From Escherichia phage KEP4, in the sequence record PP047754: a DNA stretch of 64,000 nucleotides. One strand, given 5' to 3'. Positions 10,869 through 29,619 of the stretch are shown here, piece after piece. The position numbers were made by a program, and so were the translations under genes. The first letter of the stretch is position 1; each line of letters opens with the position of its first letter. The notes under the pieces are model-generated. The model searched no databases and was not told the DNA's origin. It worked only from the letters and a program-made list of their open reading frames with translations.

Positions 10869-10895
10869 TAATACCCTATCCCCATTTATTGAAGA
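10858..10895 (-). terminator. conserved intergenic hairpin element (terminator-like), copy 1
   Basis: GGGGATAGAG ... CCCTATCCCC stem with AATAATA-type loop; on the minus strand it is flanked by TTCTTCAATAAA upstream and a T-run downstream. Near-identical architecture at 13845..13890. Confidence 0.45.
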
Positions 10896-10899
10896 ATTA

Positions 10900-11322
10900 T
10901 TAGTCTTCCGAACCTACAACCCCACCACGCAGATCCTGTGCTGGCTTACCATCAGGTGCCATGACATAGATGGTATTGATGGTCTCAAACCAAGACAATA
11001 AATCAACTCCTTCAGTGTATGGCGTTACCGGAACAGAAGTTTTGATTTCTTTCTGTTCATCCTTCAAATCCGGATGACTTCCCGATAGGGTTAACCAAGC
11101 GAATCTTCCGTTGGGATAAATAATGCCTTCTTTGAACATTACAATCTTTTTGCGAGGATTATTGGCTTCGCCCAGACACACCACCAAATGATGTATCATT
11201 TCGGGGCGCGTCAACAACGTGTCATCTTTGATAATGCCCTGCTTGACAGCAGAGATTACCACTTCATCCAGTAACGCCTGTTGCTGTTCCAGCGTCAGAG
11301 ATTCGGTTAGTTTCACGCTCAT
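10900..11322 (-). CDS. hypothetical protein
   Basis: ORF-track frame 10900..11391 trimmed to the internal Met (MSVKLTES...) at 11322 to avoid a 65-nt overlap with the upstream gene. Confidence 0.5.
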   Translation of the reverse strand: MSVKLTESLTLEQQQALLDEVVISAVKQGIIKDDTLLTRPEMIHHLVVCLGEANNPRKKIVMFKEGIIYPNGRFAWLTLSGSHPDLKDEQKEIKTSVPVTPYTEGVDLLSWFETINTIYVMAPDGKPAQDLRGGVVGSED

Positions 11323-11326
11323 AAGA

Positions 11327-11896
11327 TCAGCCTTTGAAGTTAATCGGAGTCTGGACACCAGAGTCAAATGCGGCCTGGGTACGGGTGTCACTCACCACCT
11401 GACATGTCTTGTCAAGATCGATACGCGGATATCCAAAGATTCCTGCTATCAGAGAACCAGGGAACTGGCCAAGTTTAGTTTCATAGATCGCACATGCGTC
11501 CAATTTTTTAGTTTGGCTAATGCGGAATTCATCCCGACCTGAGCTGATAACAACCTGAATCTCTTTGTACAAAGATGAATCAAACTGAATATTCTGTTCC
11601 TGAATCCATTGCATTACTGCTTTGGAACCGTCTGCACCATAACGGCCTTGGAAAGTATCTTTGATCACTTCCTTCAAACCGTTTTTGTACATGTCAGGAA
11701 TCTGCGCCGTCTCCTGAACTTTGAGCGTGTAGTTGCTCAGGTGGTTTTCAGAATCTTTGTTGAACTTTTTGACCTGTTGTTCAATGCGGTTGAAATCATT
11801 GAAATAGCTAACCACACTGCCAATCCCAATTACAGCAAATGCTAGAATTGCCAACCCAACGATCCAACCAATTGAAATACCTTTACGTTGTGACAT
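11327..11896 (-). CDS. membrane-anchored protein, LemA-like (tentative)
   Basis: 189-aa ORF with one N-terminal transmembrane helix (ISIGWIVGLAILAFAVIGIGSVV) then a soluble domain; size and topology fit the LemA family. Confidence 0.45.
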   Translation of the reverse strand: MSQRKGISIGWIVGLAILAFAVIGIGSVVSYFNDFNRIEQQVKKFNKDSENHLSNYTLKVQETAQIPDMYKNGLKEVIKDTFQGRYGADGSKAVMQWIQEQNIQFDSSLYKEIQVVISSGRDEFRISQTKKLDACAIYETKLGQFPGSLIAGIFGYPRIDLDKTCQVVSDTRTQAAFDSGVQTPINFKG

Positions 11897-11911
11897 CTTT
11901 ACTTCCTCTTG

Positions 11912-13021
11912 TTAAAACAAACGTTTGTAAGTGCGACCATTGTACTGCATGCGGCCTAATATGAAAACTGCGGTAAATGGGATACATCCAAACAACACGA
12001 CGATAATCACTTCCCAAGTTTTAAGATCTCGCCATTTCAGATATTCCATTTCCTTCATCTCGACTCGGTTGTATCCCTTACTGATATTGACCGCAACTTC
12101 TTGGAACACGGATATGCCCATTGGTTTCCCAGTCAATGAAAGTCCGTTACGAGAATGGAGTTCCATGTTGTTCATGCCGTCGGCAAATGACGTAGACTTA
12201 CCCCAATTAATTTTCATATCCTTTGAAATATCGGTGACTACAATAACATCGTTCTTTTTACCGCCAGACCATGCATATAGAAGTCCCTGAAAATATTCAA
12301 CAGGCTGGCCAGAAGTCACAACCCAAACGATATTAACCTGACGTGAAGCACCTAATGTTTTCAGAGTATTGTTCAGATAATCATTCCAGTAATCAACAGG
12401 AATGTCCATCCCTGACATATTCAGAACACGAGTTACTCGGTAATAATCATACACCCTCGGATATGAAGGGATATGCTCTTTGAACTTCTCGGCGAATTGC
12501 TGGTCAGATTTAGAGAATAATGAATCTTTGTTGCCCAGCACATAATTCATATATGAATGTTCACGTGCCGCAGGTTCCCCGATTTTAACTTGTGCCCAAC
12601 GCGGAGGCTCTGTAGTACCCTGACGATCAATACGGTCAATGCTCAGATCACCGACGGTTGTTAATACGTCCCAATCAACGTCATAAGAGTGCTCATAGCA
12701 TGTGCTGCAATGACGCGTTTGTGTACAAGATCGGTTATTTCCTGAACCAGAGCAAGATGTTGTGTAATAACACATACATTCATAAGAATGTTCACAACCC
12801 ACCTTATTCCGTTGCTTATCAGTTACATATCCATTCAGGATTTCCACGTCCCCAGAACTACCAAGGGAGAAAGCAGCATATAATCCCGACTGGATAAGGC
12901 AAGACAATACGATAACAATGGCCGTGGCGATCAAAGTCTCCTTTGGCTCATGGGTCTTGCGGTGATATATTATAAACAAGATGGCCAAAATTACAGGAAC
13001 CACAAACAGAAGGTAAATCAT
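11912..13021 (-). CDS. membrane protein with Cys-rich extracytoplasmic region
   Basis: 369-aa ORF; N-terminal and C-terminal hydrophobic helices bracket a domain with many cysteines (GCEHSYECMCYYTTSCSGSGNNRSCTQTRHCSTCYEH). Confidence 0.55.
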   Translation of the reverse strand: MIYLLFVVPVILAILFIIYHRKTHEPKETLIATAIVIVLSCLIQSGLYAAFSLGSSGDVEILNGYVTDKQRNKVGCEHSYECMCYYTTSCSGSGNNRSCTQTRHCSTCYEHSYDVDWDVLTTVGDLSIDRIDRQGTTEPPRWAQVKIGEPAAREHSYMNYVLGNKDSLFSKSDQQFAEKFKEHIPSYPRVYDYYRVTRVLNMSGMDIPVDYWNDYLNNTLKTLGASRQVNIVWVVTSGQPVEYFQGLLYAWSGGKKNDVIVVTDISKDMKINWGKSTSFADGMNNMELHSRNGLSLTGKPMGISVFQEVAVNISKGYNRVEMKEMEYLKWRDLKTWEVIIVVLFGCIPFTAVFILGRMQYNGRTYKRLF

Positions 13022-13404
13022 AACACACCATCCACGAGTTGTTCCTTCGTCATACCAAGAAGTTGATTTTTATGCTCAGATTTAGCCCCATTTTTCAACA
13101 ACAGATCCCAACGTTCTTCATGATACTGTGGAGTCATTGCATCGTCAAAAGAAACATGGTGGCGATGCATAATTGTTGCAACGGTATGAAGAACGATTGC
13201 TGTTTCTCTTTTTAAAGCACGTGTATCCGTGATGTGGTCTTCGTATTCGATTCCCATCAAATCGAGTTCTTTTCGGATATATGCTATAGACAAATCACCT
13301 TCAGAATGCAATTTAACAATAGTCGCTTTCTTAGGATGTAACACGCCGTCTGTTTCTTTCATGAACAGATCGTACAAATATTGTTTGTATTCGGGGCGCT
13401 TCAT
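13018..13404 (-). CDS. hypothetical protein
   Basis: 128-aa ORF, 4-nt overlaps on both sides. Confidence 0.5.
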   Translation of the reverse strand: MKRPEYKQYLYDLFMKETDGVLHPKKATIVKLHSEGDLSIAYIRKELDLMGIEYEDHITDTRALKRETAIVLHTVATIMHRHHVSFDDAMTPQYHEERWDLLLKNGAKSEHKNQLLGMTKEQLVDGVL

Positions 13405-13622
13405 CTCGTAATCCCTCCGGCACAGATGATATTCAGTTCACCGCGACGGAAACCGCCTTGCCCACCGTTCAATTTAGTCGGAAGCGTATCTTGAACTTTT
13501 TGTGCGAACTCTTCCGACACTACCAGATGACCCTTTTCTTGTTTCGGGGTAGATTCAAAATAGTCGCCAAATGTCGCTTCCATATCGAGCACAGACATGT
13601 CTTCAATTCGTTGCATTGCCAT
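13401..13622 (-). CDS. hypothetical small protein
   Basis: 73-aa ORF in operon-style packing. Confidence 0.4.
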   Translation of the reverse strand: MAMQRIEDMSVLDMEATFGDYFESTPKQEKGHLVVSEEFAQKVQDTLPTKLNGGQGGFRRGELNIICAGGITR

Positions 13623-13633
13623 GATATAGGACC

Positions 13634-13825
13634 TCAGTATAATTTCGTATAAACTTGTTTAACGCCAATATCGGCAGGAGCTGTGCTCTGCTGCATATTA
13701 TAGAATGCCAAATCTGCTTGTTCTTTGTTTTCAAAATCAACTACAACTGTGTGTACTGATATTGCTTCACCCTGTCCATAAGCATAACAACGGCTGGTGA
13801 CCAATATTTTGTATTGAGGTGTCAT
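13634..13825 (-). CDS. hypothetical small protein
   Basis: 63-aa ORF. Confidence 0.35.
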   Translation of the reverse strand: MTPQYKILVTSRCYAYGQGEAISVHTVVVDFENKEQADLAFYNMQQSTAPADIGVKQVYTKLY

Positions 13826-13844
13826 AAATCAATCCTTGCAAAAA

Positions 13845-13890
13845 GAAAGGGGAACGGGCTAATAATAACCCATTCCCCTTTATTGAAGAA
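13845..13890 (-). terminator. conserved intergenic hairpin element (terminator-like), copy 2
   Basis: AGGGGAACGGG ... CCCATTCCCCT stem with TAATAATAA loop and the same TTTATTGAAGAA flank as the 10858 copy. Confidence 0.45.
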
Positions 13891-13906
13891 CGCAATCGCA
13901 ATCAGA

Positions 13907-14074
13907 TTACTTTTTCTTCAGCTCGTCCAGTTTGGCTTCGATTTGTTCCAGGATGTCTTTACCCTTCTGAACAATCACTTCACCGTCTTGCGCGTGTTTA
14001 CGAAAGACCAGAGCGCCAGCTACGAAGCCGACAACAACGCCAGGAAGCGCGTACACCAACAGATCTTGTAACAT
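13907..14074 (-). CDS. small membrane protein (55 aa)
   Basis: Hand-found ORF below the 60-aa track cutoff: MLQDLLVYALPGVVVGFVAGALVFRKHAQDGEVIVQKGKDILEQIEAKLDELKKK, one transmembrane helix plus a charged tail. Confidence 0.4.
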   Translation of the reverse strand: MLQDLLVYALPGVVVGFVAGALVFRKHAQDGEVIVQKGKDILEQIEAKLDELKKK

Positions 14075-14110
14075 GATAATATCCTCACTTTATAGGTGAG
14101 GATATTTATA

Positions 14111-15346
14111 TCAGCGCTTCAACAAAGACATGAGGTTTACACTGGTCGACTTCGGATTGTCCTCTATCTTTCGGACGGGCATTTTCAGATTAGTGTAAAC
14201 CTCAGATGGTTCCCAACGCGTACCCTGCTGTAAATGCCATATATGTAGAGGAACACCCGTCTCAAAGAACACAGGCATCTTCCACTTCTGGACGCCAGGA
14301 ACGTGCCCTGCAGGAGCTTTTTCGCACAACAGGGTATCTGGTAGCCAGAGTGAACGGGCTTCCCATAATGCCTTACAGGAGTATTCAGGCCAAATACGTT
14401 CCATATAATCGATCTCGTCCCATGTACGCTCGGCGTCCCACCCGATGTAACGGGTATTCTTCAGTCGGAAGAATTTCTTCAGCCAACAAGCACCGGAGGT
14501 CTCAAAGTTCAGACGATTGATAAACGTGATGTGGCCAAACTCTTCAACGCATTCCTGAAACGCTTTCTCAAGGTCGGTTTCGAGTATATCACATTCTTCG
14601 TCTGTAATAGGACAACCGTTGATCTTTTTCTTCCCGTGCTTGGTCACCCAGTCGTCACGGTTTGACAAGAATGCCGCGCCGTTGCGGTTGGACTCGCTGC
14701 CATCGCGGTCACGCAGCATGAACCCAGGGACGTCGATCTCCCACATGTTGCCGAATACCATGTTCAGGGCTTCCAGGAAGTTCCAGGCGCTCAGGCGGCC
14801 AAAGTATTTCCAGGACATCGCCGTGTCCCACAGATTCGTGAATTGGTGGACAGGGATATCCAATTCAAGCATCGGTCGGAATGCTTCCATCTGAGTACGC
14901 CCAGCCAGCCAATCAATGTAGGACTGAACACACGGGATCATCTTCGACTTACGGTAACGGCAATCGGTATCGAAGCGCATACGCTCAAAGTTCAGGTTGT
15001 ACCAATCAGAAAAGCGCTGCATCTCTTCTTTGGACTGAGGAGGCACAGGGAACTCACTGTAGATTGTCCATGGACCGATGGCGTTATAACAGCAGCCCCA
15101 AAGGAACGACATCCAGATCTTGCGCTCGATCTTCTCAAGCTGTGTGATGCCTTCAGTGACTTCGATCGCATAGTCCATCAGACGCATCTGCTGGTTGTGC
15201 TCTTCGGTGTAGGACAGCGCCTCCACCCAAGCCTTGAGCAGGTACATCCGATTCTCAGGCTTGCGATAGTCAACAGCCAGGTCAATCGGGTACTTCCATT
15301 CAGCCGGGGGCGCATAGCCAGTCGGCATTTTAGAAATGTTATTCAT
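14111..15346 (-). CDS. conserved protein of unknown function; candidate DNA-base modification enzyme (tentative)
   Basis: 411-aa Trp/Cys-rich ORF clustered with a P-loop kinase, a HAD hydrolase and the DNA polymerase. No motif-level assignment was possible by eye. Confidence 0.6.
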   Translation of the reverse strand: MNNISKMPTGYAPPAEWKYPIDLAVDYRKPENRMYLLKAWVEALSYTEEHNQQMRLMDYAIEVTEGITQLEKIERKIWMSFLWGCCYNAIGPWTIYSEFPVPPQSKEEMQRFSDWYNLNFERMRFDTDCRYRKSKMIPCVQSYIDWLAGRTQMEAFRPMLELDIPVHQFTNLWDTAMSWKYFGRLSAWNFLEALNMVFGNMWEIDVPGFMLRDRDGSESNRNGAAFLSNRDDWVTKHGKKKINGCPITDEECDILETDLEKAFQECVEEFGHITFINRLNFETSGACWLKKFFRLKNTRYIGWDAERTWDEIDYMERIWPEYSCKALWEARSLWLPDTLLCEKAPAGHVPGVQKWKMPVFFETGVPLHIWHLQQGTRWEPSEVYTNLKMPVRKIEDNPKSTSVNLMSLLKR

Positions 15347-15528
15347 CCGATTTTACTCCCGAGTTCAACACGGAACGCCAGATAGAAGAAAGTGGCGATA
15401 GATACAGGACATATCACCAAGAATGGGCGCTGTTGCACCCCTTCTGTGACCATGACGCCGACCAGCGAAACCGTAAAGATAACGAACATCAACATCATGA
15501 AGATAAAATCAACCTGCTTGATTTTCAT
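15343..15528 (-). CDS. small membrane protein
   Basis: 61-aa ORF, two hydrophobic segments. Confidence 0.4.
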   Translation of the reverse strand: MKIKQVDFIFMMLMFVIFTVSLVGVMVTEGVQQRPFLVICPVSIATFFYLAFRVELGSKIG

Positions 15529-15895
15529 CTTTCACTTCCTCTACAGGAGAAACAACTTCAGGCTCAGCTTCGGGAGCCAGCTGAATTTCTTCGGGGCTTA
15601 CTACGGGCTGTCCCAGAGACCAGATAGGCAGGAAACGACGATCATTCGTCACCAACCAAATTTGCTTGGCGGTTTTCGTCTTTTCGGAAATAAAATGCTG
15701 GGCATTGACTTGGGTACGAGCCAAACCCACCTGACGCCAAGAACCGAAATCCTTAGAAGAAGGATTGGTATTCAGTTGAAATTGTGGGACGATTTTATTC
15801 TGTTCCGGATAGTAACGGACAGCGTTAATCATCTTCGCATCACCACGGTAATCAATAGCAACAGCGACAACGTTGCGTGGAATGAGGATTTTCAT
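15509..15895 (-). CDS. hypothetical protein
   Basis: 128-aa ORF with acidic Pro/Glu-rich C-terminus. Confidence 0.5.
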   Translation of the reverse strand: MKILIPRNVVAVAIDYRGDAKMINAVRYYPEQNKIVPQFQLNTNPSSKDFGSWRQVGLARTQVNAQHFISEKTKTAKQIWLVTNDRRFLPIWSLGQPVVSPEEIQLAPEAEPEVVSPVEEVKDENQAG

Positions 15896-15896
15896 T

Positions 15897-16100
15897 TTAA
15901 TTCCTTTTGAAACTCTGAATTATGTTATAGACGAAAGGCGTTAATAAGATAGCACCCCCCAAATAATATAACGCGTAAACGTTCAATATTTCGGTTGAAT
16001 CCAACTCAACGATGCCCAAATATTTCATGACACCGACGAGCACAGCTGTGATACACATCACCAATCCGACGAACACAAAATATTTAGACATCTGTTTCAT
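15897..16100 (-). CDS. small membrane protein
   Basis: 67-aa ORF with two predicted transmembrane helices. Confidence 0.4.
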   Translation of the reverse strand: MKQMSKYFVFVGLVMCITAVLVGVMKYLGIVELDSTEILNVYALYYLGGAILLTPFVYNIIQSFKRN

Positions 16101-16102
16101 TT

Positions 16103-17008
16103 CTAACCCTTACTCAACAGGCCGAGAAGGGATACAGAGGACTTTGTTACCTCTCCCTTGGCGCTCGCCTTGGTTTTAGATTTGGTCACCTTCTCAGGGA
16201 CTCGATGCGCTAGAGGATCATCCCCACCGACTTCGCGCGTCATTGGGTCAGTTTCACAGAATCCGTAGAAATCTTTGATGTCCAGACCCATGGCGTGAAA
16301 CTCACCACGCATTTGATGATGAATAGCGTTGCCAATCACCCACAAAGGTGCATCAAACGGCATCATGGCTAATTCGCTATCATTTCCTGTTTTGAATTCT
16401 TGAGTGTTTGTAGGCGATTGACGATACAACACGTCTTGCCCGCTGTAGTCATTGACCACCACTTCCCAACCCAGCACCAGCATTTCAGTCTTCGACTTCT
16501 CAAACTCCTTGGAGTAAGATTCGTTGCGTGACCAGCCGGAGTCCCCTGCTTCCTTACCAGAGCGACCACGGATGCGCGCATCATACTGATAGCGGTCTGG
16601 GTATGCAAAATAAAGCAACGCCAGAGATTCAATCGGATAGTTCTTGAACATCCATTCAGGACGCCATTTATCTGACAGCATGAGGGGTTCACCCTCGCAC
16701 ACCAAAGTGTAACCCTGAGCCAGCCAGCCTTTGACCAGATCACGGGCGATATCACCCGAGCCTGTGGCGGCGTGGATGGCGTCCATGGAAGTCCAGGAAG
16801 CCAGACCGGATTTGTTGGACACAGTATACTGGCCGACGAAGATTAACTTCAGCTCTTCGAATTTCAGGCCGAATGGGCGCGTCTTGTCACCAATGGTGTA
16901 GGTGAGTTCAGTAGGCTCCAGCTTAGTGCGGAGCCATTCGATGAACTGGACTACTCTCGTACCCTTGCCCACGCCACTTGTTCCTTTCACTACAATTATT
17001 TTAGCCAT
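16103..17008 (-). CDS. P-loop kinase (NMP-kinase-like Walker A)
   Basis: 301-aa ORF; N-terminal IIVVKGTSGVGKGT matches the GxxGxGKGT P-loop of nucleotide/nucleoside kinases. Confidence 0.65.
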   Translation of the reverse strand: MAKIIVVKGTSGVGKGTRVVQFIEWLRTKLEPTELTYTIGDKTRPFGLKFEELKLIFVGQYTVSNKSGLASWTSMDAIHAATGSGDIARDLVKGWLAQGYTLVCEGEPLMLSDKWRPEWMFKNYPIESLALLYFAYPDRYQYDARIRGRSGKEAGDSGWSRNESYSKEFEKSKTEMLVLGWEVVVNDYSGQDVLYRQSPTNTQEFKTGNDSELAMMPFDAPLWVIGNAIHHQMRGEFHAMGLDIKDFYGFCETDPMTREVGGDDPLAHRVPEKVTKSKTKASAKGEVTKSSVSLLGLLSKG

Positions 17009-17349
17009 TATGCATCTTCCTCAATACGCCAGCTCACACCGCCCAACCAGGGAGACCAGAAAACAGCAACCTGTGGGCGATCGTTTTCTACAAACTTCAC
17101 TTTATACTGGTCGTCGAAGTTATAGAAAATTTCATCGTCATCTGGTGCCATACCGTTTTCTATCAGAACACGCTTTAACTCCAGCGCCGCACCAACGGAA
17201 GTGGGTGTGGTTTGTTTACGAATGAAGTTGTTCACATGGATAATAACGCCATCCATATCGCTATCACCGGAACGCTTGTCTGGGGTTTCCCCAAACTTGG
17301 ATTGTTCTTGCACGATGTCCTCCTCAATGGACGTATTGATAATGGCCAA
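17008..17349 (-). CDS. hypothetical protein
   Basis: 113-aa acidic ORF. Confidence 0.45.
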   Translation of the reverse strand: MAIINTSIEEDIVQEQSKFGETPDKRSGDSDMDGVIIHVNNFIRKQTTPTSVGAALELKRVLIENGMAPDDDEIFYNFDDQYKVKFVENDRPQVAVFWSPWLGGVSWRIEEDA

Positions 17350-18106
17350 TCAGGCGGTTCACCACTTCGACAATATTGCGGTTCAGGAAGTCGAAGTGGT
17401 TCTGGCCTTCGACTGGTTTAATATAAAGCATATCTTCCGAGTTCGAAAGATCCAGTTTTTCATAATTTCCCTGGGGAACAAAGATGACAAAAATATTGTT
17501 CATCGCACAGGGTTCAACGTATTTCGGGTTATCATCAATTAAAACATCACCTGCCAAAAGATGCTTTTCGTCGGTGCTGACAAACCCGTTGAAGATGCCA
17601 GGGAACTTGTCATAGACAAACTGGCGCTTGCTGCGCTCGTGTTCTGGCTCACACTTAGATACTGCGATCAATTCAACATTTTCAAAGTCTTCGAGAAGGA
17701 TCTTCTTCAGATTCACCAGGAACTCGTAAGCGCCTGGAAGCGGGTTCATCTTGGCATACAGGTCCGGCATGCGCCACCAATCCATAGGATCACGTCCTGT
17801 AGGTGAATCCATCCATTGACCAGCAACAAACACACGGCGCGTCAACCATGCTGGGTGAGCGCGTTCCCGCATGAGGATCGCCAAATCACCAGCATGAGCC
17901 ATATAGCACTCTTTGGTGATACGCTGGAAATCATTGGGATAATCATGACAACCCATGTTTTCAGCAGCAGCTTTTGAATTGGAAATATTAAACCAATCCA
18001 CCCAAGGGGAGAGGCTATCAACCAAAGTCAAGTCTACGTCTACCAGGATACGATACATTCCACCGATTTTAGAATTGGCATCATACAGACCAACATGATT
18101 ATTCAT
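17324..18106 (-). CDS. HAD-superfamily hydrolase (possible nucleotidase/phosphatase)
   Basis: ORF-track frame 17324..18166; start placed at the internal Met (18106) with GGAG upstream. Motif I hhhDxDxT present (ILVDVDLTLVD). Confidence 0.55.
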   Translation of the reverse strand: MNNHVGLYDANSKIGGMYRILVDVDLTLVDSLSPWVDWFNISNSKAAAENMGCHDYPNDFQRITKECYMAHAGDLAILMRERAHPAWLTRRVFVAGQWMDSPTGRDPMDWWRMPDLYAKMNPLPGAYEFLVNLKKILLEDFENVELIAVSKCEPEHERSKRQFVYDKFPGIFNGFVSTDEKHLLAGDVLIDDNPKYVEPCAMNNIFVIFVPQGNYEKLDLSNSEDMLYIKPVEGQNHFDFLNRNIVEVVNRLIGHYQYVH

Positions 18107-18443
18107 CAGACTTCTCCACTTGATCATAACCAGTTGCGGTGCATTGCTCTTCTGTGCAATCTGCATACAGAACCACAGAAGATTCCTTCACGTAAGTGGT
18201 ACAGTGATAGGTTTCATCTTCCTGGATGGAATCGTCATAATTGCAAACAGTTTGCAACGGACCAGGAGTGGTGTTATCCAACGCAGCATGTGCCTTGATT
18301 GTGTCTTCCATCTTATTCACCGCTTGCTGATTGGTGAACGTCGGCGCATCGAGGTCAACAGTAGACGCAACGTCCAGAAGGGTAGAGCATGCAGTGGTAG
18401 AGAAAGCCAGAGCACACACCAGAAGAATCTTATTGAGTTTCAT
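18099..18443 (-). CDS. predicted lipoprotein
   Basis: Start placed at MKLNKILLVCALAFSTTAC: signal peptide with lipobox-like STTAC, mature protein Cys-rich and acidic. Confidence 0.5.
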   Translation of the reverse strand: MKLNKILLVCALAFSTTACSTLLDVASTVDLDAPTFTNQQAVNKMEDTIKAHAALDNTTPGPLQTVCNYDDSIQEDETYHCTTYVKESSVVLYADCTEEQCTATGYDQVEKSDE

Positions 18444-18503
18444 AACAATACCTGTTGTCAAAGGGATAACAGGGGGAATTATATCCCCCTTTGGTTTATT
18501 GAA

Positions 18504-21500
18504 TCAACCTTTCTTGCCCATCATGGACAACAGATTAACTCGACGTTTATGAGACCAACCAACCACATCCAAGATAGACTGAATTGGCTCTATAAAGGTC
18601 TTTTCAAACGTGGTGTGGTAATCCACCCATTTATCCAATCCCAATTCTGGAGGAAGGAAGTCAGGGAAGGCTATGCGATCATTCCCCACAGGATTGCCAG
18701 GTTTCAGGTTGATGATTTTAACCTTATCGCCAGATTCGATAGGGGGAAGACCGAGATCTTCGTGCTTATCGATCAGCTTGTTGTACATAATACAAGCCTT
18801 GGCAGCAAAGTGCGTACCGCTGATGTAATTCCCGTTCGCGTCTAACCACTTCTCAATATCGCTTACACCAGATGCCTGAGCGATATCATCCACGGTGAGT
18901 TCCATATATTCCTTTTTGTATCCAGCGATTAATTCCTGAACCTCTGCCTCAGTACCGAGCAGGACTTTCTCATAACATTTAACCAGACGCTCACGACACC
19001 ACTCAGGAGTGGTTGATTTACGCGCTTCCAGACCTTTGAATTTGATCTTTGGCTTCTCATACTTGATGCCTTCGCTATCGTATACTGCCATGCAATACAT
19101 CTTCTTGGCTCGCCATACAGCAGACGATGCGATGACCTCACGTTCCCAGACCATGCGCTGCTCAAACCCGTTCATGGTATTACACAACAACTGCGCCCAT
19201 TCACTGGTTTTTGGCTGGTAATTCTCTTTGATCCATTGGTCAATGTTATCAACGAGTTTGTGATGGTCCTTTTCTTCAGGCCACAATTGCTTGACCAGGC
19301 GTTCAATGCAAATGTAGTTGGAGTCTGTATCACCTGCGATAACAAAATCCTGACCAGTAGTACCACAAAGTTTGTTCAGATAATCATCAGTGTGGCGTTT
19401 GTTCCATTTATTGATCAACTGGCCGGAAGTGGTAATTGCTTCAGCGATGTTGATGTTGAAGTATTCTTTAAACCAGACGTTAGAAATTGCACCATATCCT
19501 GCGTTCATCAAGATCTTCAGACCTTGTTGTAACGTATCTTGGGCAACTCCCAAATCTTCCCACTTGTGCATGACTTCAGTCAGGTGATCAAGGTCGATAT
19601 GCTTGTGTTCTTCATACCATTCAGGATCGTAGAAACGAGACTTCATGGCAGATTCAAGGTGGAAATCACCTTTAGACATTTCCTTACACCAACCAGCCCA
19701 TTGCTCATACTTCAGACCAGTTGCTTTCTCTCCTTTACGGTCAGCGTATATGCCTCGCATAATTTCGGAAAGGAAAGACATCTTCTCATTACTGAAGAAT
19801 TGAACGTTCGGGGTAAACGAAACGTTATATCGACGTAATGTTTCAAAATGGAATTCACCCAGCGCGACCAATTCATCAACAACTTGTATGCGTTCATCAA
19901 TAGCACGCTGCAGCTTGTCGTGAAGATTTTTGAGATGACGGCGCTTGTTCATAGGCGTTGTCATATCATTCATCGCTTTGGTCAATTCTTCACACATGGA
20001 CTCAATGATATCGCGACGTGTGTGCTTGTCAGAAACGATAGTCTCAGGACCAAGGTTGTATTGCTGTATGATGTGGGGATACAGGGAGTTTAAGTCCTCA
20101 GAGAATACCCAGAAATATATCCCTGGTGCAACCTCCATGACATATGCGCCTTCAAAGTCCGTTGGACCATCATATACACGCTGTATTTTAGGGACAATCC
20201 CCTTTTCATAAAGACGATAGTAACACATCGCCAGCCATGGTGCTACAGTCCCAAGACCGTCTTCATAGTTAGATTTGGTGCGATACGCCAATACGAACAT
20301 CAGCTGTATCAAACGCAGCTTTTGTTCTAAACGCCACACGAGTTTGACGTCTTTGATACCATATCGGGTGTGTTTGCAATAATCATTAAAATATAGATCA
20401 TACAATGACTTGCTTTCACTATAATCCAACTTCTTCTCACCGAGTTCACAATAAGCGATCCAATCCAGTGAGTATTTTTCGCGGGTTGTGTACGTGTGTT
20501 TCTTGTAAACTTGCATGTAGTCCATCATAGGACAACCCACGAATTGATAAGAAGTCACGTCGCCTTTACGGTCTTTGATGAAACGTTTCTTGAGTTTGCC
20601 CCAAGGACTGAGGCGCTCTGCCTGAGTTTCACCGAGAACCTGCGTAATACGTTCAACCAAGTACGGGCTATCAAACGTTTCGATGTTCCAGCCAGTCCAA
20701 CCATCAAATTGACGTTCAGACCAATAATCTAAGAAAGCGCGAAGAAGTTCTTGTTCAGTCGTGTATTCTTTGTATTCAACCTCAAGACCACCTATCTCTT
20801 CATCATTTGGATCATATTTGAATTTATGGCGATCCTTAGAACACGGCATACCCCAGACATAGAACTTGTTGGTGTTCATGTCTTGAAGCTGGATGAGCGT
20901 AATAGGGAAGGCGGCATTCATGTTCTGTGTGATCTTACCATTACTATCAATGATAGGGAACTGGTCAGTCACGTTGTTGGAAATAAAGGAACCTGGGAAG
21001 TGCTCTCGAACGAAATCATGGTTGGCCAACACTTGCTTATGGAATCGGCGAACACGCGCCTCGCTCCCCTTAAACGTGTGGGATTCAATCGTCGCGTGAG
21101 GAAATGGGCCTTTAGTCATTTCTCCATCGCGCCACCCAGCCGAGAAAACTTCGATATCCACGTTGGCGATGTGAATATTTGAGTAATCGGGGGTAATCAT
21201 CCCAGGAAAACTATGCGCTATGAATTGATATGCATAATCCGTTTGTCCGTAAACGGCAGCGCCTTCGACCTCCTTATATTCCTCCAGATAGTTGTCGGCG
21301 TCACGCATTGACGCAAATTTTTTAGACACCAACGGTTCATTGAGGAGGCCAATCTTTTCAACTTTGGAATAATCGGCTGTGGGTAAATACAAGGTGGGTT
21401 CGAATTTCTTACGCAACATACGGCGATTGCCGTTGTCGTCTGCAATACGAATCAGAAGGTCGTTACCCTGTCGGGCAACGTTCGTATAGAAAACAGTCAT
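18504..21500 (-). CDS. DNA polymerase, family B (T4 gp43-like)
   Basis: ORF-track frame extends to 21659, but the internal Met MTVFYTNV... at 21500 has a GGAG RBS and avoids overlap with the divergent gene. Exo I-like NVDIEVF and motif C IAGDTDSNYI present. Confidence 0.85.
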   Translation of the reverse strand: MTVFYTNVARQGNDLLIRIADDNGNRRMLRKKFEPTLYLPTADYSKVEKIGLLNEPLVSKKFASMRDADNYLEEYKEVEGAAVYGQTDYAYQFIAHSFPGMITPDYSNIHIANVDIEVFSAGWRDGEMTKGPFPHATIESHTFKGSEARVRRFHKQVLANHDFVREHFPGSFISNNVTDQFPIIDSNGKITQNMNAAFPITLIQLQDMNTNKFYVWGMPCSKDRHKFKYDPNDEEIGGLEVEYKEYTTEQELLRAFLDYWSERQFDGWTGWNIETFDSPYLVERITQVLGETQAERLSPWGKLKKRFIKDRKGDVTSYQFVGCPMMDYMQVYKKHTYTTREKYSLDWIAYCELGEKKLDYSESKSLYDLYFNDYCKHTRYGIKDVKLVWRLEQKLRLIQLMFVLAYRTKSNYEDGLGTVAPWLAMCYYRLYEKGIVPKIQRVYDGPTDFEGAYVMEVAPGIYFWVFSEDLNSLYPHIIQQYNLGPETIVSDKHTRRDIIESMCEELTKAMNDMTTPMNKRRHLKNLHDKLQRAIDERIQVVDELVALGEFHFETLRRYNVSFTPNVQFFSNEKMSFLSEIMRGIYADRKGEKATGLKYEQWAGWCKEMSKGDFHLESAMKSRFYDPEWYEEHKHIDLDHLTEVMHKWEDLGVAQDTLQQGLKILMNAGYGAISNVWFKEYFNINIAEAITTSGQLINKWNKRHTDDYLNKLCGTTGQDFVIAGDTDSNYICIERLVKQLWPEEKDHHKLVDNIDQWIKENYQPKTSEWAQLLCNTMNGFEQRMVWEREVIASSAVWRAKKMYCMAVYDSEGIKYEKPKIKFKGLEARKSTTPEWCRERLVKCYEKVLLGTEAEVQELIAGYKKEYMELTVDDIAQASGVSDIEKWLDANGNYISGTHFAAKACIMYNKLIDKHEDLGLPPIESGDKVKIINLKPGNPVGNDRIAFPDFLPPELGLDKWVDYHTTFEKTFIEPIQSILDVVGWSHKRRVNLLSMMGKKG

Positions 21501-21579
21501 TGTTTGTCTCCGGTTAACCGTGCCGTTAGCACGTCCCCGTAATTTAGCCGAGGAACGTTCAATGACCAAGGAGTTTATT

Positions 21580-22152
21580 ATGGCAATCCCCTTTGTGAGT
21601 ATGATCCCAGGGGCGCTCAAGCAACTCTGGAACCTCGGGACTGATTTGATCCAATACAAGCGGGAAGTTGTTCAGGCCAAACACGATGTCAAGCTAGAGG
21701 CTATCAAGTCCTCCTCAGATTGGGAGCTGTCTAAGATCACCGAAGTCGGCGGGTCTTGGAAAGACGAATTCTGGACTATCGTGTTAGCTGTTCCCGCTAT
21801 CCTCGTCATGACTGCTCCGGTTGTGGAACTAATTCTGTTCCCTGATGAGTATCATAAAGGGGATTTCATCAAAGCAGTAATCGACGGCCTCCAGGCGCTC
21901 GATACCGCACCTGAATGGTATACCTATTCGTTATTGACAGCAATTAGTGCATCATTCGGTATCAAGGGGTATAACCATTACAAAAGCAACAGCCGGAAGG
22001 CGCAAGCTGTGGATGCTCTCAAGCAGTTTGGGGTCAAAGTGGTTAACAAAGATCCCACTGTTGTTACTCAGTCGGGTTCTCCCGATCTTGAGTCTGCTCC
22101 CCCAGCTGGGTCTACTGCGACCTCTGGTGCGTGGCCTGATCTGAAGAAATAA
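21580..22152 (+). CDS. hypothetical membrane protein
   Basis: ORF 21520..22152; start placed at the ATG (MAIPFVSMIP...) preceded by AAGGAG. Contains a hydrophobic helix (WTIVLAVPAILVMTAPVV). Confidence 0.5.
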   Translation: MAIPFVSMIPGALKQLWNLGTDLIQYKREVVQAKHDVKLEAIKSSSDWELSKITEVGGSWKDEFWTIVLAVPAILVMTAPVVELILFPDEYHKGDFIKAVIDGLQALDTAPEWYTYSLLTAISASFGIKGYNHYKSNSRKAQAVDALKQFGVKVVNKDPTVVTQSGSPDLESAPPAGSTATSGAWPDLKK

Positions 22153-22156
22153 GTTA

Positions 22157-22184
22157 GAGGGGAGGAAACTCCCCTTTCTTTTGG
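22157..22184 (+). terminator. rho-independent terminator
   Basis: GGGGAG-GAAA-CTCCCC hairpin followed by TTTCTTTTGG. Confidence 0.65.
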
Positions 22185-22193
22185 TGTTAAGGA

Positions 22194-22406
22194 ATGAAAG
22201 TGGTAAACAAGAGATTGCTCGTCACCCAAGGCGGGGCGACGATAGTGAGAGGAAGGATTTACGAACAGATTCAGCTGGGTGATCATAAGACACGCCTGAC
22301 TGTCAAAGCACCGGACGGCGGATGGCCCACAAAGGTGGTTGTCCCCGACGGCCTCATAGAACGAGGGACAGCAGTGTACAAAGGAGCAGAGTTCAAAATT
22401 TATTAA
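22194..22406 (+). CDS. hypothetical small protein
   Basis: 70-aa ORF after the terminator. Confidence 0.4.
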   Translation: MKVVNKRLLVTQGGATIVRGRIYEQIQLGDHKTRLTVKAPDGGWPTKVVVPDGLIERGTAVYKGAEFKIY

Positions 22407-22501
22407 AATATTTATTGAATAAAGTTTACTTCTTCAATAACTGGCGTATACTTCTAATTGTAGTACGAACAAACAACAATCTGAAGAGAAGGAAATACAT
22501 C

Positions 22502-23059
22502 ATGGCAATCGAAATTATCGCTCAATCCAAATCCGGCAAAACTGTATTGTTCGGCACCGAAGAAGGCCGTGTAATCACCACTTTGGGCACAGTTGACGGC
22601 AGCAACCCCGTAAAAGGCGGTCGCTTCCTGGTTGAGTACGGTTCTCGTGTCGTGATGGTAAGTAAAATTGATGGGCGTGATATCACTGCTCCTCGTCAAG
22701 AATTCTTTGATTCACGTTCTGCCGCCATGCAATTCTTTTTCTTCCAGAAACGTCACGAACTGTTCGTTGAAGCGAAAGACGCAGGTCTGGACGACGCAAC
22801 GGCTGAGCTGATTGCCGAAGGTAAAATGACTCTTGAGACTGCTCTGGGAGACATGGATTACGAAGCCGAAGCGCATTATATTGAATATTCCGCATATCAG
22901 AACGAATGTGAAGATGATCCGGAAGATGATGGATTTGATCCAGATCTTCACGGCGGCGAGGATGACAATACTCCTTCTCTGGAAGTTATCATGGCTGGTG
23001 GTCAGGCCGCTTGGGAATGGCAGAATGAAAAGAACGCATGGTTGGATTCCCGCCTCTAA
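22502..23059 (+). CDS. hypothetical acidic protein
   Basis: ORF 22322..23059 trimmed to the Met (MAIEIIAQSK...) with AAGGAAA RBS; acidic C-terminus. Confidence 0.55.
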   Translation: MAIEIIAQSKSGKTVLFGTEEGRVITTLGTVDGSNPVKGGRFLVEYGSRVVMVSKIDGRDITAPRQEFFDSRSAAMQFFFFQKRHELFVEAKDAGLDDATAELIAEGKMTLETALGDMDYEAEAHYIEYSAYQNECEDDPEDDGFDPDLHGGEDDNTPSLEVIMAGGQAAWEWQNEKNAWLDSRL

Positions 23060-23066
23060 TATGACA

Positions 23067-23084
23067 AAGCCCCTTCGGGGGCTT
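23067..23084 (+). terminator. hairpin terminator (UUCG loop)
   Basis: AAGCCCC-TTCG-GGGGCTT immediately after the stop of 22502..23059; downstream T content is modest. Confidence 0.4.
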
Positions 23085-23107
23085 ACTTTGAACTGAAGGA
23101 CTATATT

Positions 23108-23257
23108 ATGATTTTTATCGTGTGGGTAGTATTCGCATTTCTGGCCATGGCCGACATCGGCAAGTATCACCTAATCCCCAGTGACCTGACTGTCCTGCTG
23201 TACGGTATGGTTTCGTACATCCTGGGTTATGTCCGCGCCCGTCTTCTGTCTGAATGA
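23108..23257 (+). CDS. small membrane protein (49 aa)
   Basis: Hand-found ORF MIFIVWVVFAFLAMADIGKYHLIPSDLTVLLYGMVSYILGYVRARLLSE; upstream context GAAGGACTATATT-ATG is repeated before the next gene. Confidence 0.4.
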   Translation: MIFIVWVVFAFLAMADIGKYHLIPSDLTVLLYGMVSYILGYVRARLLSE

Positions 23258-23268
23258 AGGACTATATC

Positions 23269-23811
23269 ATGAATATACCAAAAACTCCTGTCCGTATTGC
23301 CGTCGAGCCTCTGCTGGTTGATGCTGAGAATGCTGCTGAGCAGTACGCGAACAAAGTCATCAAGAACATAATGGACGATCTGGCATCCAACGGCTGGGAC
23401 GTCGAGAAGTGCGCTCCGTGGCCATCTTCGGTTGGTGTCAAGTTTGGTGATCCAGATTACCAACGAATGAAATCAAAACATGCGCTCTACCGTTCTTTGA
23501 CCCAGGCAGTGAATCCTTCTTACATACCTGGGAAGCCGGATATTGTCAAAGCTGATCCTGAGCGCCATGCTCTGTTTGTCAAAGAAGCACGTCGAAACGC
23601 TGCGATGCAATATGAGTCTTTCATTTGTAAACTGGAAGACAAAATTGGTGGGCACAGCGCGGCTGTGCTGAATGGTTCCCATATATGGGGTTATTCAATC
23701 CTAACCGTGACTACACCAGAGGGGATCGAGCGCTGGAAGACTCAGACGATTATCAATGTGTCCAAGCTGGGCAAACTCTTTAACCAATATCCAACGAGGA
23801 AGGTGAAATGA
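23269..23811 (+). CDS. hypothetical protein
   Basis: ORF 23254..23811; start placed at the second ATG (MNIPKTPV...), which has the same GAAGGACTATAT context as the preceding small gene. Confidence 0.55.
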   Translation: MNIPKTPVRIAVEPLLVDAENAAEQYANKVIKNIMDDLASNGWDVEKCAPWPSSVGVKFGDPDYQRMKSKHALYRSLTQAVNPSYIPGKPDIVKADPERHALFVKEARRNAAMQYESFICKLEDKIGGHSAAVLNGSHIWGYSILTVTTPEGIERWKTQTIINVSKLGKLFNQYPTRKVK

Positions 23812-24182
23812 TGAAAAACTTCGCACAAGAATTACAGACTACGATTGACCAGGCTCAGATTTGGGAAGCCATGGGGATAGTTGAAAAAGCCGTTGATATC
23901 TTTGTTTGCAAAATGAAGAAGCAACTCGTTTCCCAAGCAAATCGCGGAGTTGAAATTGATGACATGGTGTACGCTGTTGGTGGCCACAGGTTTGACGAAA
24001 TATTAACCGCATTTCAACAGGCATATAAGTCTCAAAAATACCCAACAGACAAGCAAGTCGAAAAGTTCAAAACATTGTTGGTGGCGAGTCTTCTGAAGGA
24101 AGGTTTGAAGTTCGAATTACACAAGGATGAAAGAACAGATGTCGTAACAATGAGATTCACAGTACACACAAACGATATCTAA
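23808..24182 (+). CDS. hypothetical protein
   Basis: 124-aa ORF, 4-nt overlap with upstream gene. Confidence 0.5.
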   Translation: MMKNFAQELQTTIDQAQIWEAMGIVEKAVDIFVCKMKKQLVSQANRGVEIDDMVYAVGGHRFDEILTAFQQAYKSQKYPTDKQVEKFKTLLVASLLKEGLKFELHKDERTDVVTMRFTVHTNDI

Positions 24183-24184: not shown

Positions 24185-24207
24185 CAAAGGGGCATTAAGC
24201 CCCTTTG
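24185..24207 (+). terminator. bidirectional rho-independent terminator
   Basis: CAAAGGGGC-ATTA-GCCCCTTTG hairpin with T-runs on both sides, between convergent genes 23808..24182 (+) and 24209..24667 (-). Confidence 0.65.
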
Positions 24208-24702: not shown

Positions 24703-25152
24703 TTAGGCTTCTCTGGTCGCCAACCCTGGCTTAAACACCACCATTTCCTCAACGTTATTGGCACTCATAGAGGCTATAGAATCGAACCCTTTGTTGATAA
24801 GTTCTTTCACATTATCATGTATCTTACCAGGCTTTATCCCCAACTCTCGCATTTTATTTTCCCACACCGAAACATTGTTGGAATCTATTACAAGAGTCTT
24901 CTTGGCCTTGACACGAAATGCCATGACAATAGGTTCACCAGATTGACGATAGCGCACGGCATTTTCTGCGTAGATCTGTGCCTTTTCTGGATCCCCCGTC
25001 AGGTAAAACCCAGCACCCATCGTACCAGAGTCAGTCTGGCCAAATTTTTCAAAATCAAAGATATCGAATTCAACATTAGACCCATGATACAAAACGATAT
25101 TCGTAAAATCAGGTAACGTTGATTCGCGATAAAATTCTAGAAAGGTTTTCAT
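24703..25152 (-). CDS. hypothetical protein
   Basis: 149-aa ORF; no confident motif. Confidence 0.5.
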   Translation of the reverse strand: MKTFLEFYRESTLPDFTNIVLYHGSNVEFDIFDFEKFGQTDSGTMGAGFYLTGDPEKAQIYAENAVRYRQSGEPIVMAFRVKAKKTLVIDSNNVSVWENKMRELGIKPGKIHDNVKELINKGFDSIASMSANNVEEMVVFKPGLATREA

Positions 25153-25191: not shown

Positions 25192-26385
25192 TTAGCTGGG
25201 GACAAACTCATTCACAGGGACATGTTCAGGTATTGATAATTCAGGACAAGCAGCTTTCATCGCTTCCAGATATGGCTTGCTACCCACGATCCAAAACAAT
25301 GAGTTCTCATTAAGCAATTCTGGTTTGTGTTCCTGTATCCATGTCATCACCTTCCCTTCATAACGAGGATGCAACTCAATATCTCCCCACTGGTAATCCA
25401 TGAGGTCGTTGTAACGAACCCAATTAGTGGTATGAAGATCCCAATGGTGTACCTCAAAGCGAGGAAGCACGATATCCGGCTCGTTCTTTGGCCTGATACC
25501 ACTTAGGAGGCCAGCCAGCGAAACGCTCTTAGAGGCATGCTGAAGATCCTTCTTACCATACACATAATCTGGGTTGTCGTGATAGCGACGAGTGAAATCA
25601 GTTATGTGAGGGAGGTTTGCTTGCTTACCGATAATGCGCAAACGACTTTCAATGAAATCTAATCGGTTAGGTCCAATCCCGATCAGATAGACATTCTTCA
25701 GATTTGGTTTCGGATGCATCGCTAAACCTGTCAGGATACTGGTGCATGAATTACAAGAACCAGCAGGAATGATCAGATCAGTGATATGGTCTGGGATATT
25801 GGCAACCTGCTCGCCACCCAGCATATGGAATCCAGCAATGCGTTCTGGTGAATGAACGGTATGATCCAATGTAATGCCATATTCCAGATAATACGCCTTT
25901 GGATTTAATTGTTCAATGAGTTTCTTACAGCGCGGCTGAATGGTGCTATTGTAACCAGATCCAACAAAGTTGAACTCACTACCAAACCATGCTGACATTG
26001 AAACCATATCATGATTCATGCATGTGGTTGGTTTAGTGGCACCCAGCACAGTGGTTGTCTTGCCGCCGAAATGCCGTGAGACTGCCGTCGCCATAGGGGA
26101 CTGCGGACTACCAACTACAGTACCATGGATAAGATCTGGGGATCCTCCAGCTTTCAGATGCTCCATCATGAGCCAGATGGCCTGGCGGAGTTTGCTGCCA
26201 TTGATCCCCTGCTTGCCATTCATATAGCATGACAAAGGCGCGAAGTAATCTTCACGTTTGAACCAAACCTGCTGATTGGTTTCTGGATTGGCAATAAGTT
26301 CGCACGGGGTGTGTTTGTAGAGATAGTCTTCCCAGTGAACCAGATTACGGTCGAGGGAAAGGGTATCGAAGATGGTTTTGTTCAT
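25192..26385 (-). CDS. PLP-dependent enzyme, fold type II (Trp-synthase-beta/ACC-deaminase-like), tentative
   Basis: 397-aa ORF; candidate PLP-lysine motif NGSKLRQA and a loop IIPAGSCNSCTSILTG resembling the VVCSVTGSTQAG loop of ACC-deaminase/D-cysteine desulfhydrase enzymes. Confidence 0.45.
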   Translation of the reverse strand: MNKTIFDTLSLDRNLVHWEDYLYKHTPCELIANPETNQQVWFKREDYFAPLSCYMNGKQGINGSKLRQAIWLMMEHLKAGGSPDLIHGTVVGSPQSPMATAVSRHFGGKTTTVLGATKPTTCMNHDMVSMSAWFGSEFNFVGSGYNSTIQPRCKKLIEQLNPKAYYLEYGITLDHTVHSPERIAGFHMLGGEQVANIPDHITDLIIPAGSCNSCTSILTGLAMHPKPNLKNVYLIGIGPNRLDFIESRLRIIGKQANLPHITDFTRRYHDNPDYVYGKKDLQHASKSVSLAGLLSGIRPKNEPDIVLPRFEVHHWDLHTTNWVRYNDLMDYQWGDIELHPRYEGKVMTWIQEHKPELLNENSLFWIVGSKPYLEAMKAACPELSIPEHVPVNEFVPS

Positions 26386-26454
26386 TCTATTTCTCCTGTA
26401 GGCATTGGCTTATCATAGCGTATCTACAGGAGTATAGAAAAGGAGAATCTCGGA

Positions 26455-27156
26455 TTACTTCTTGAACAGACGAAGGAACTTCATCATGTTATCCATGAAA
26501 GTCGGCTTCTCGACCTTTTGTTTTACCGGAGCGCCCTGATCATTCAGAACACGACTGGCCGGAGGAGTAGGCGGTGTCGGGATTGAACTGTCATGTTTAA
26601 CAACCGGAGCACCACTGGCCAGAGGAGTTGGCTTCAAAGATTTAATTGCCTGATTCAAATCGGAATTATCCACGACACCCACTTCTTCACCGACCGTAAC
26701 GCATGGTTTGATCAGAACGGATTTCTTAGACTGCTCATACTGATGAGCGATGTCCAGATATTTCTTGCGCTCTGTGTAGAAATCAACATTCTTTACTTTA
26801 CGGCGGCGAGCAGTAGAACTCTCTTCACCATAGAAATCATAACCATTTTTGAATAACCAATTCACGGCTTGCTCAAATGTGTTGAACACCATATACAGAC
26901 CGCGTCGACCATTTACCATGTCGTCTTCGCTGGAATAACCAATGAATACCGCTTGCCCTTTCTTGTTGATATCAAAAGGAGTACACACACCAGTTTCTTC
27001 AAGTGATCGCGGAGCAAGATGCCCGTCCCGATAGATATATGCCGGATACAAGAACTCATTAAGAGTACGTTTGTTCCCTTTGTATGTGTACAGGCGAGCA
27101 AATGGAGGCAGGTCACAAACGACATCGTTGTAATCCCAAATCGTAACATTACGCAT
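26455..27156 (-). CDS. hypothetical protein
   Basis: 233-aa ORF with Pro/Thr-rich linker and basic C-terminus. Confidence 0.5.
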   Translation of the reverse strand: MRNVTIWDYNDVVCDLPPFARLYTYKGNKRTLNEFLYPAYIYRDGHLAPRSLEETGVCTPFDINKKGQAVFIGYSSEDDMVNGRRGLYMVFNTFEQAVNWLFKNGYDFYGEESSTARRRKVKNVDFYTERKKYLDIAHQYEQSKKSVLIKPCVTVGEEVGVVDNSDLNQAIKSLKPTPLASGAPVVKHDSSIPTPPTPPASRVLNDQGAPVKQKVEKPTFMDNMMKFLRLFKK

Positions 27157-28034: not shown

Positions 28035-28060
28035 GAAGCCCGATCTTCCTGATCGGGCTA
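28035..28060 (-). terminator. rho-independent terminator (minus strand) at the exit of the tRNA island
   Basis: AGCCCGATC-aggaa-GATCGGGCT hairpin followed on the minus strand by TCTTTTTGTC. Confidence 0.5.
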
Positions 28061-29206: not shown

Positions 29207-29619
29207 ATTTATTCTTACTTTCGTAAACATTCTTTATTTTGCATGAAGACCCAGGGCAGGATCATAACGATCGTAAGTTTTTGGATGAGACCCGTTCTTG
29301 ATGCTCACCATCCGACCTTCCCAACTAGCGCGAATTCTGTTGGAAATCACCACCCAAATATTCTTCATAATATAGAACCCTTCAACTATGTTTATTCGCT
29401 TCGATCGCCCTTAATTGGGCGTCCGCGTCAGCTTTGGTGTCATGTGTCCCAAGAACTTTAGTCTTGGTGTGGTCAAGGACAACCCACTTATCGCCTCGCT
29501 TTTCAACAAACTCAACAATCTCTTTGTTGTCAGTAGCGAGGCCATCCCACTCAGTAAGAAACTCACCGAACGTTTTCATCATACTCACCAATTGTTTATT
29601 GAACAACTGGTTTATTTAG

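Follow-up and report, generated by a model that had tools for sequence, protein, structure and literature searches.

A predicted O-serinyl-thymidine decarboxylase of a Kuttervirus carries a polymerase-tail-like peptide, a candidate clamp-docking motif, in common with the other DNA hypermodification proteins

The hypermodified thymidine of phage ViI, 5-(2-aminoethoxy)methyl-2'-deoxyuridine (5-NeOmdU), is formed when lysates with ViI gp67, gp160, gp226, gp243 and gp247 act on DNA containing 5-hydroxymethyl-2'-deoxyuridine (5-hmdU) (Lee et al. 2018, PMC5889632). Later work by the same group (Lee et al., NAR 2021, PMC8989533) found that gp247 moves serine onto phosphorylated 5-hmdU, and that lysate reconstitution without gp226 leads to the accumulation of a nucleoside intermediate of +44 u. 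Purified gp226 was yellow, contained pyridoxal 5'-phosphate (PLP), absorbed at 410-425 nm and converted O-serinyl-thymidine (O-SerT) in DNA to 5-NeOmdU, with the loss of one labelled carbon. Gp52 of Pseudomonas phage M6, a PLP-dependent C-alpha-glycinyl-thymidine decarboxylase, was described as homologous and as performing the same chemistry (PMC8989533): it decarboxylates an amino acid that is linked to DNA and whose alpha-amine is free, but its substrate is a C-C-linked glycine from a radical-SAM isomerase, and it belongs to a siphovirus with a tight five-gene cluster. Here we analyse a gene of the gp226 type at positions 25192-26385 (minus strand) of a 64,000-nucleotide stretch of DNA from Escherichia phage KEP4 (sequence record PP047754; the window), and a short peptide that its product has in common with the phage DNA polymerase and with the other hypermodification proteins.

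The peptide has a parallel in the T4 replisome. The hydrophobic C-termini of T4 gp43, gp55 and gp33 are interchangeable epitopes that bind the sliding clamp; they sit on variable, probably unstructured linkers, and the gp55 epitope is functional even when internal, in gp55-gp33 fusions (PMC2988020). In both T4 and RB69 the clamp epitope of the family-B DNA polymerase is its C-terminal tail (PMC2988020).

By sequence, the source genome of the window is a Kuttervirus, a ViI-like member of the Ackermannviridae: the region is 100% identical to Salmonella phage kage and to STP-4, and its identity to many further Kuttervirus genomes exceeds 98%. We used the 157-kb genome of kage for whole-genome peptide scans; window and kage are in register over the first 31.4 kb and offset by 32 bases in the remainder, and only directly checked window coordinates are given. 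The open reading frame (ORF) at 25192-26385 is real in the window sequence and encodes 397 residues from an ATG, 7 nt downstream of the Shine-Dalgarno sequence AGGAGA (26392-26397, minus strand). Its product is 93% identical over 394 residues to ViI gp226 (YP_004327553.1; Vi01_182, orf00226). The ViI reference record has the gp226 gene in the corresponding place, between a tail-knob-like gene and the polymerase region, and the partner genes are the same. The two proteins differ in that gp226 is annotated with 27 extra N-terminal residues (L003 30539-31813); the shorter start has a good Shine-Dalgarno sequence. Such an extension is impossible in KEP4 because a stop codon lies 8 codons 5' of the ATG, the stop-to-stop segment spanning 405 residues (window 26386-26409). 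Since the 424-residue ViI annotation is longer by these 27 residues, the published K92 is K65 here, the lysine of an NGSKLRQA motif, and the two lysines align. The gene is almost certainly the Kuttervirus ortholog of ViI gp226, that is, a PLP-dependent enzyme for the last step of 5-NeOmdU synthesis on polymeric phage DNA. For practical purposes the enzyme is gp226 of a sister species, already known, and as a Kuttervirus copy of a published decarboxylase it adds nothing new in itself.

A similar peptide was first noted in three proteins, the PLP enzyme, 5-hmdU kinase 2 and the serine transferase, while orthologs were being compared. In the PLP enzyme the region reads ASKSVSLAGLLSGI, with SVSLAGLL at residues 287-294 (25504-25527, minus strand). 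It is located in an insertion loop, residues 280-302 (25480-25548, minus strand; loop peptide HASKSVSLAGLLSGIRPK), the only low-confidence (disordered) segment of the AlphaFold2 model, in which LAGLL (290-294) is modelled as a short helix. Many distant members of the family lack the loop, and so do the aligned chains of 1-aminocyclopropane-1-carboxylate (ACC) deaminase. The family-B DNA polymerase (18504-21500, minus strand), which we took as the reference, ends in a peptide of the same type (RRVNLLSMMGKKG), its C-terminus being ...KRRVNLLSMMGKKG with the motif at 18519-18539. The 5-hmdU DNA kinase 2 (PF18747; 16103-17008, minus strand), an ortholog of ViI gp243 with 85% identity, ends ...KSSVSLLGLLSKG (motif 16115-16138), and the serine:DNA transferase (amino-acid:DNA transferase, AADT, PF18724; 14111-15346, minus strand), an ortholog of ViI gp247 with 92% identity, ends ...KSTSVNLMSLLKR (motif 14120-14143). 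Across these four proteins of the window the peptide has the form V/I-S/N-L-x-x-L/M-L/M with basic flanking residues.

Two further carriers are encoded outside the window. The gp160 ortholog (PF18723; kage_48, L005 15233-16438) has the C-terminus ...VRSINLLEKMKK, and the gp67-type kinase (PF18748; kage_115, L006 16635-17297) has the N-terminus MSYSLKGLLKR. The peptide is present, then, in all five ViI-type modification proteins and in the polymerase: at the C-terminus of the polymerase, kinase 2, the transferase and the gp160 ortholog, at the N-terminus of the gp67-type kinase, and internally in the PLP enzyme. The expression S[VTI][SN]L..LL, applied to all six frames of the window, has three matches, one each in the genes of the PLP enzyme, kinase 2 and the transferase, and no others. 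The expression V[SN]L..[LM][LM] finds five real genes in the kage genome against about 0.6 expected, adding the family-B polymerase and a 70-residue cysteine-rich ORF to the first three. Both expressions were written after the data had been seen and are descriptive; we place the weight on the probe and profile tests given below. The cysteine-rich ORF (kage_128, L006 25130-25342, outside the window) ends DKVNLLSLMSK, with the same tail as the polymerase, and has no Pfam match; its product may be one more client of that partner, so far overlooked.

The analogy to T4 gp43, gp55 and gp33, together with the clamp and clamp-loader subunits annotated in the Kuttervirus genome (the clamp gene lies outside the window), led us to infer that the loop peptide docks the PLP enzyme on the gp45-type sliding clamp of the phage, or on some other shared partner in the replisome, so that modification would follow the fork. 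For docking on the clamp we put the chances at roughly even. An even bet, too, is the broader proposal that the whole ViI-type hypermodification machinery, namely both 5-hmdU kinases, the gp160-type helical protein, the transferase and the PLP decarboxylase, consists of sliding-clamp clients. Each enzyme would then have acquired the clamp-docking peptide of the polymerase, at its C-terminus, at its N-terminus or, as in the decarboxylase, within an inserted surface loop. The peptide would co-evolve with the polymerase tail between phage lineages, and the enzymes of a multi-step base modification would travel with the clamp in the wake of the fork.

As in the clamp clients of T4 and RB69, the polymerase and functionally unrelated proteins of one phage have in common a short peptide, hydrophobic in character and borne on a linker that is flexible and variable. 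The systems differ in that the clients here would be DNA-modification enzymes, and in the peptide itself: the T4 epitope is SLDFLF with acidic residues (gp43 ends ...KASLDFLFG and gp55 ...SPSLDFLYEAND), whereas that of KEP4 is V[SN]LxxLL with basic ones. The idea of a post-replicative DNA-modifying enzyme tethered to the clamp would be shared with DNMT1-PCNA and with T4 alpha-glucosyltransferase-gp45. DNMT1, a eukaryotic enzyme unrelated to the phage ones, binds PCNA via a PCNA-interacting peptide (PIP) box. An interaction of the T4 alpha-glucosyltransferase with gp45 was put forward on the basis of in vitro data, and a 2025 preprint did not reproduce it.

Several observations weigh against docking on the clamp. 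The match of the phage clamp to PF09116 is weak and, at 19.9 bits, lies below the cutoff of 25. In the PLP enzyme the peptide is internal (287-294 of 397) and not C-terminal, though in a disordered loop. It lacks the register of the T4 epitope, SLDFL[FY], and differs from it in charge. It is absent from the gp55-like (late sigma-like) and gp33-like late transcription proteins of kage. Finally, a probe made from the T4 gp43/gp55 epitopes picked out neither the tails nor the loop in the loci of T4-like phages that carry a Tet/JBP dioxygenase.

The same weak clamp match, the same missing copies in late transcription proteins, the basic character of the peptide and its being missed by the T4 probe would suit a different reading, that the shared peptide is real but docks on another common partner (the single-stranded DNA-binding protein, the helicase or a scaffold of modification enzymes) or is a signal for localisation or turnover. 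This is possible but in our view doubtful. The sole protein of the set with a precedent is the family-B polymerase, and its precedent is the clamp epitope of the T4 and RB69 tails (PMC2988020). In the phage, moreover, both a clamp and a clamp loader are annotated, and a lineage with a beta-clamp-type protein has a QSLF transferase tail instead.

The comparison loci offer some observations of their own on tails and clamps. In T4-like metagenomic phages (L010 7873-15394, L012 8631-15860) the genes for a gp45-type clamp and a clamp loader are preceded, at a distance of a few kb, by an operon of Tet/JBP dioxygenase, PLP enzyme, transferase and P-loop kinase. In the T4-like Tet/JBP loci the dioxygenase and the transferase end in SLExFF-type tails, acidic and hydrophobic, and the tail of the gp55-like sigma factor is similar. 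The QSLF transferase end was found in two loci (L011 11082-12233, and L051), few cases, in which the PLP enzyme has no insertion loop; L011 encodes a bacterial beta-clamp-type protein (PF02767). The QSLF tail resembles the bacterial beta-clamp motif QL[SD]LF.

Whatever the partner, the peptide differs across phage lineages yet is matched inside each genome. In Vibrio phage D503 the tails of the polymerase (...KKARKLW), kinase 2 (...KTKKLW), the transferase (...KTRKLW) and the gp160-like protein (...STKRLW) are all of the [KR][KR]LW type, and the PLP loop reads KTRRLFG. Erwinia phage Bue1 has VNLMAML in the polymerase, NSILRHF in kinase 2, NNLLSLF in the transferase and KNLLDIM in the PLP loop, the gp160-like gene not being in the locus. 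In the Klebsiella-type lineage the corresponding peptides are VNLLAMM, SNVLAMM, VNLMSLM and SVSLLGLL, again with no gp160-like gene in the locus. The Serratia-type lineage has VNLLSMM in the polymerase, SNLLAML in kinase 2 and TNVMHLL in the PLP loop; neither the transferase nor the gp160-like gene is in the locus. Beyond this core, both the length and the sequence of the PLP loop are free to change.

When the last 12 residues of each polymerase were used as a probe (ORFs of at least 80 residues, BLOSUM62), the best-scoring C-termini were those of the transferase, kinase 2 and the gp160-like protein in four of the five lineages. The exception was the Erwinia phage, whose polymerase continues for another seven residues beyond the motif, so that a probe of 12 residues did not capture it. 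When the PLP enzyme was left out and a profile was made of the tails, the PLP loop came out at rank 1 or 2 of 7,000-24,000 positions in each of five Ackermannviridae lineages. Scanned over all of kage, the profile gave the PLP loop a score of 18.0, against 16.8 for the next non-carrier. An internal QSINLLALM (residues about 560-570) in a 1,612-residue VrlC-like structural protein (47956-52794, plus strand) scores like the true tails; we consider this match to be probably due to chance.

Such a match would suit the reading that the likeness between loop and tails is itself coincidental, a product of low-complexity, leucine-rich sequence in a variable loop, and the fitting of the regular expressions to data already seen is a further reason for caution. 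Other results weigh against docking. Searched against full PLP sequences, the last-12 probe finds the loop only in the Vibrio phage; in the other lineages its best match was a spurious 'GKxG'. Because the four enterobacterial lineages are not independent of each other, there are only two or three separate classes of motif and not five. In the T4-like Tet/JBP phages the signal of the PLP loop in the within-genome profile test is ambiguous, first in one small locus and third in another, and for this reason we make no claim for a loop motif outside the Ackermannviridae. Coincidence is in our view improbable: in each of five lineages the site, which keeps its place in the structure as the remainder of the loop varies freely, ranks first or second, and the loop turns to the RRLF type in exactly the lineage that has RKLW tails. 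That the shared peptide is no accident is, on these comparisons, very likely.

The identification of the enzyme itself draws on Pfam, PHROG, alignment, the structural model and profiles, and its function on PMC8989533. Pfam PALP (PF00291) matches residues 24-249 with E=1.6e-7; some homologs have a precomputed PF00291 match. NCBIfam gave no match. Because a sequence search of the PDB with the single protein as query returned chance matches only, none of them significant, relatives of solved structure had to be sought by profile or fold. The AlphaFold2 model, made from a 40-sequence alignment, has a mean predicted local distance difference test score (pLDDT) of 90.1 and a predicted template modelling score (pTM) of 0.89. 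Its best PDB matches in Foldseek are D-cysteine desulfhydrase and ACC deaminase (probability 1.0, E=2e-10), with target-normalised template modelling (TM) scores of 0.63-0.71 to 4d8t, 4d92, 1tzk and 1j0a. The last of these is the template cited in Lee et al. 2021 (PMC8989533).

K65 (codon 26191-26193, minus strand) is invariant in 40 homologs of 42-92% identity and, from conservation and alignments, is the predicted Schiff-base (internal aldimine) lysine. In profile alignments to 1rqx and 1f2d the family profile aligns K65 with Lys51 of the ACC deaminase 1rqx, the Schiff-base lysine of that enzyme, SPQ (93-95) with SNQ, and HPRYEGK (339-345) with DPVYEGK. The subfamily signature (the GxK lysine, the S-N/P-Q loop and P-x-YEGK) is present in full. 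On the model and these alignments the protein is a fold-type II enzyme of the ACC-deaminase/D-cysteine-desulfhydrase branch. The original prediction, a 397-residue ORF with the NGSKLRQA lysine encoding a fold-type II PLP enzyme that might decarboxylate a serine adduct, is borne out by these results, and the step that it proposed is the published function of gp226. Two points temper the assignment: the PALP match, at 31.4 bits, falls under the gathering score of 35 bits, and PLP binding and O-SerT decarboxylation are known from the ViI ortholog only (PMC8989533) and would extend to KEP4 by orthology.

With ACC deaminase and D-cysteine desulfhydrase (1rqx, 4d8t, 1j0a) the enzyme has in common the fold, the Schiff-base lysine, the S-x-Q loop and P-x-YEGK. 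Their substrates are free amino acids, on which they catalyse ring opening or beta-elimination. The substrate of the gp226 type, in contrast, is a serine ether bound to DNA, which it decarboxylates; a beta-elimination would reverse the modification and has to be avoided. The enzyme also differs from them in having an additional disordered loop of about 25-45 residues. The resemblance to these solved folds, and deposited names such as 'putative threonine ammonia lyase', 'threonine dehydratase' and 'PLP-dependent lyase/thiolase', might suggest an auxiliary catabolic enzyme (threonine ammonia-lyase/dehydratase, D-cysteine desulfhydrase or ACC deaminase) acting on free metabolites. We regard this as highly improbable: identity to such enzymes is only 14-16% in the Foldseek matches, no NCBIfam family is hit, the published biochemistry contradicts it, the 93%-identical ortholog acting on DNA-linked serine and being required for the final modification, and the family adjoins DNA-modification genes in 52 of 57 loci. 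The 2018 paper (PMC5889632) had left room for an order in which decarboxylation of free serine, or of a serine nucleotide, comes first and the ethanolamine so made is then transferred to DNA; such an order is scarcely credible after the 2021 work, in which the substrate of the transferase is serine, the carboxylated adduct builds up on DNA without gp226, and purified gp226 acts on O-SerT DNA (PMC8989533).

The pathway shown for ViI, and assigned here by orthology, would then run as follows. 5-hmdU would be incorporated during replication, and its hydroxymethyl group phosphorylated by the 5-hmdU DNA kinase of the window (16103-17008) and by the second kinase encoded outside it. The amino-acid:DNA transferase (14111-15346) would swap the phosphate for serine, attached through its side-chain oxygen, leaving the alpha-amine free. 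This amine would displace K65 to form an external aldimine with PLP; CO2 would be lost and the aminoethoxy group would remain. Outside the window, next to the PF18748 kinase, the genome has a gene of the thymidylate synthase family, which may encode either a dUMP hydroxymethylase, and hence a source of 5-hmdU, or a thymidylate synthase.

The partner genes also travel with the decarboxylase at large. Related loci were counted if the PLP gene was flanked by 3 kb or more on each side; of 57 such loci, 52 have a 5-hmdU kinase and/or the transferase within 10 kb. Within the window the PLP gene is 3.7 kb from the DNA polymerase, yet it is the fourth of six minus-strand genes in a separate unit running from 27989 down to 24209, and a 2.6-kb plus-strand block and the polymerase gene lie between this unit and the kinase and transferase genes. 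A bidirectional terminator-like hairpin (24186-24205) marks the downstream end of the unit, and another (28037-28059, minus strand) lies upstream and sets it off from a tRNA cluster; both were called by consensus scan only. A scan for sigma-70 promoters gave a signal no better than in shuffled sequence. The original prediction had placed the gene in the replication module and in one pathway with the kinase cluster. The distance to the polymerase fits the former, although the unit between the two hairpins is distinct from that module; the PF18747 and PF18724 genes of the window and the linkage in related loci agree with the latter, although the gene stands outside the polymerase/kinase operon.

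The neighbours of the PLP gene include an ADP-ribosyltransferase-like gene and virion-protein genes. The gene just downstream (24703-25152, minus strand) matches PF18760 (ART-PolyVal) with E=2e-10, and several records name it 'putative structural protein'. The gene just upstream (26455-27156, minus strand) encodes 233 residues with a weak NDUS4-like match and is called 'ETC complex subunit' in the records; its product combines a proline-rich linker with a C-terminus, FMDNMMKFLRLFKK, that is both hydrophobic and basic, and the homolog in an Erwinia phage ends FAQRLLGFLSVFRR. In the tRNA cluster ARAGORN calls tRNA-Ser, tRNA-Asn and tRNA-Met only; the 135-nt 'tRNA-OTHER' of the kage record (29234-29368, minus strand) is not among its calls.

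Deposited names for the PLP gene are inconsistent, and besides those given above include 'DNA repair protein' and 'hypothetical protein'. PHROG 3650, labelled 'unknown function', matches the enzyme end to end (6e-242). The main practical value of identifying the gene is in correcting such names, that of PHROG 3650 among them.

The shared polymerase-tail peptide, SVSLAGLL in the decarboxylase, is a candidate docking motif for the clamp or the replisome on the strength of sequence, profile and model, and a new, testable lead that we did not find in the searchable literature. We found no link there between thymidine-hypermodification enzymes and the clamp: neither the word 'clamp' nor the loop peptide occurs in Lee et al. 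2021, and the sliding clamp is unmentioned in a 2024 structural paper and a 2024 family review. If confirmed, docking on the clamp would give a first clue to the physical coupling between replication and the thymidine hypermodification that follows it. It would extend the 'tool-belt' idea of the clamp to base-modifying enzymes in phages, where the sole comparable claim, that for the T4 alpha-glucosyltransferase and gp45, is disputed, and it would provide a simple sequence marker for finding more clamp clients and modification genes in phage genomes. If true, it could also explain how several enzymes acting in sequence reach their sites fast enough to protect new DNA, and may bear on the modification of only about 40% of thymidines.

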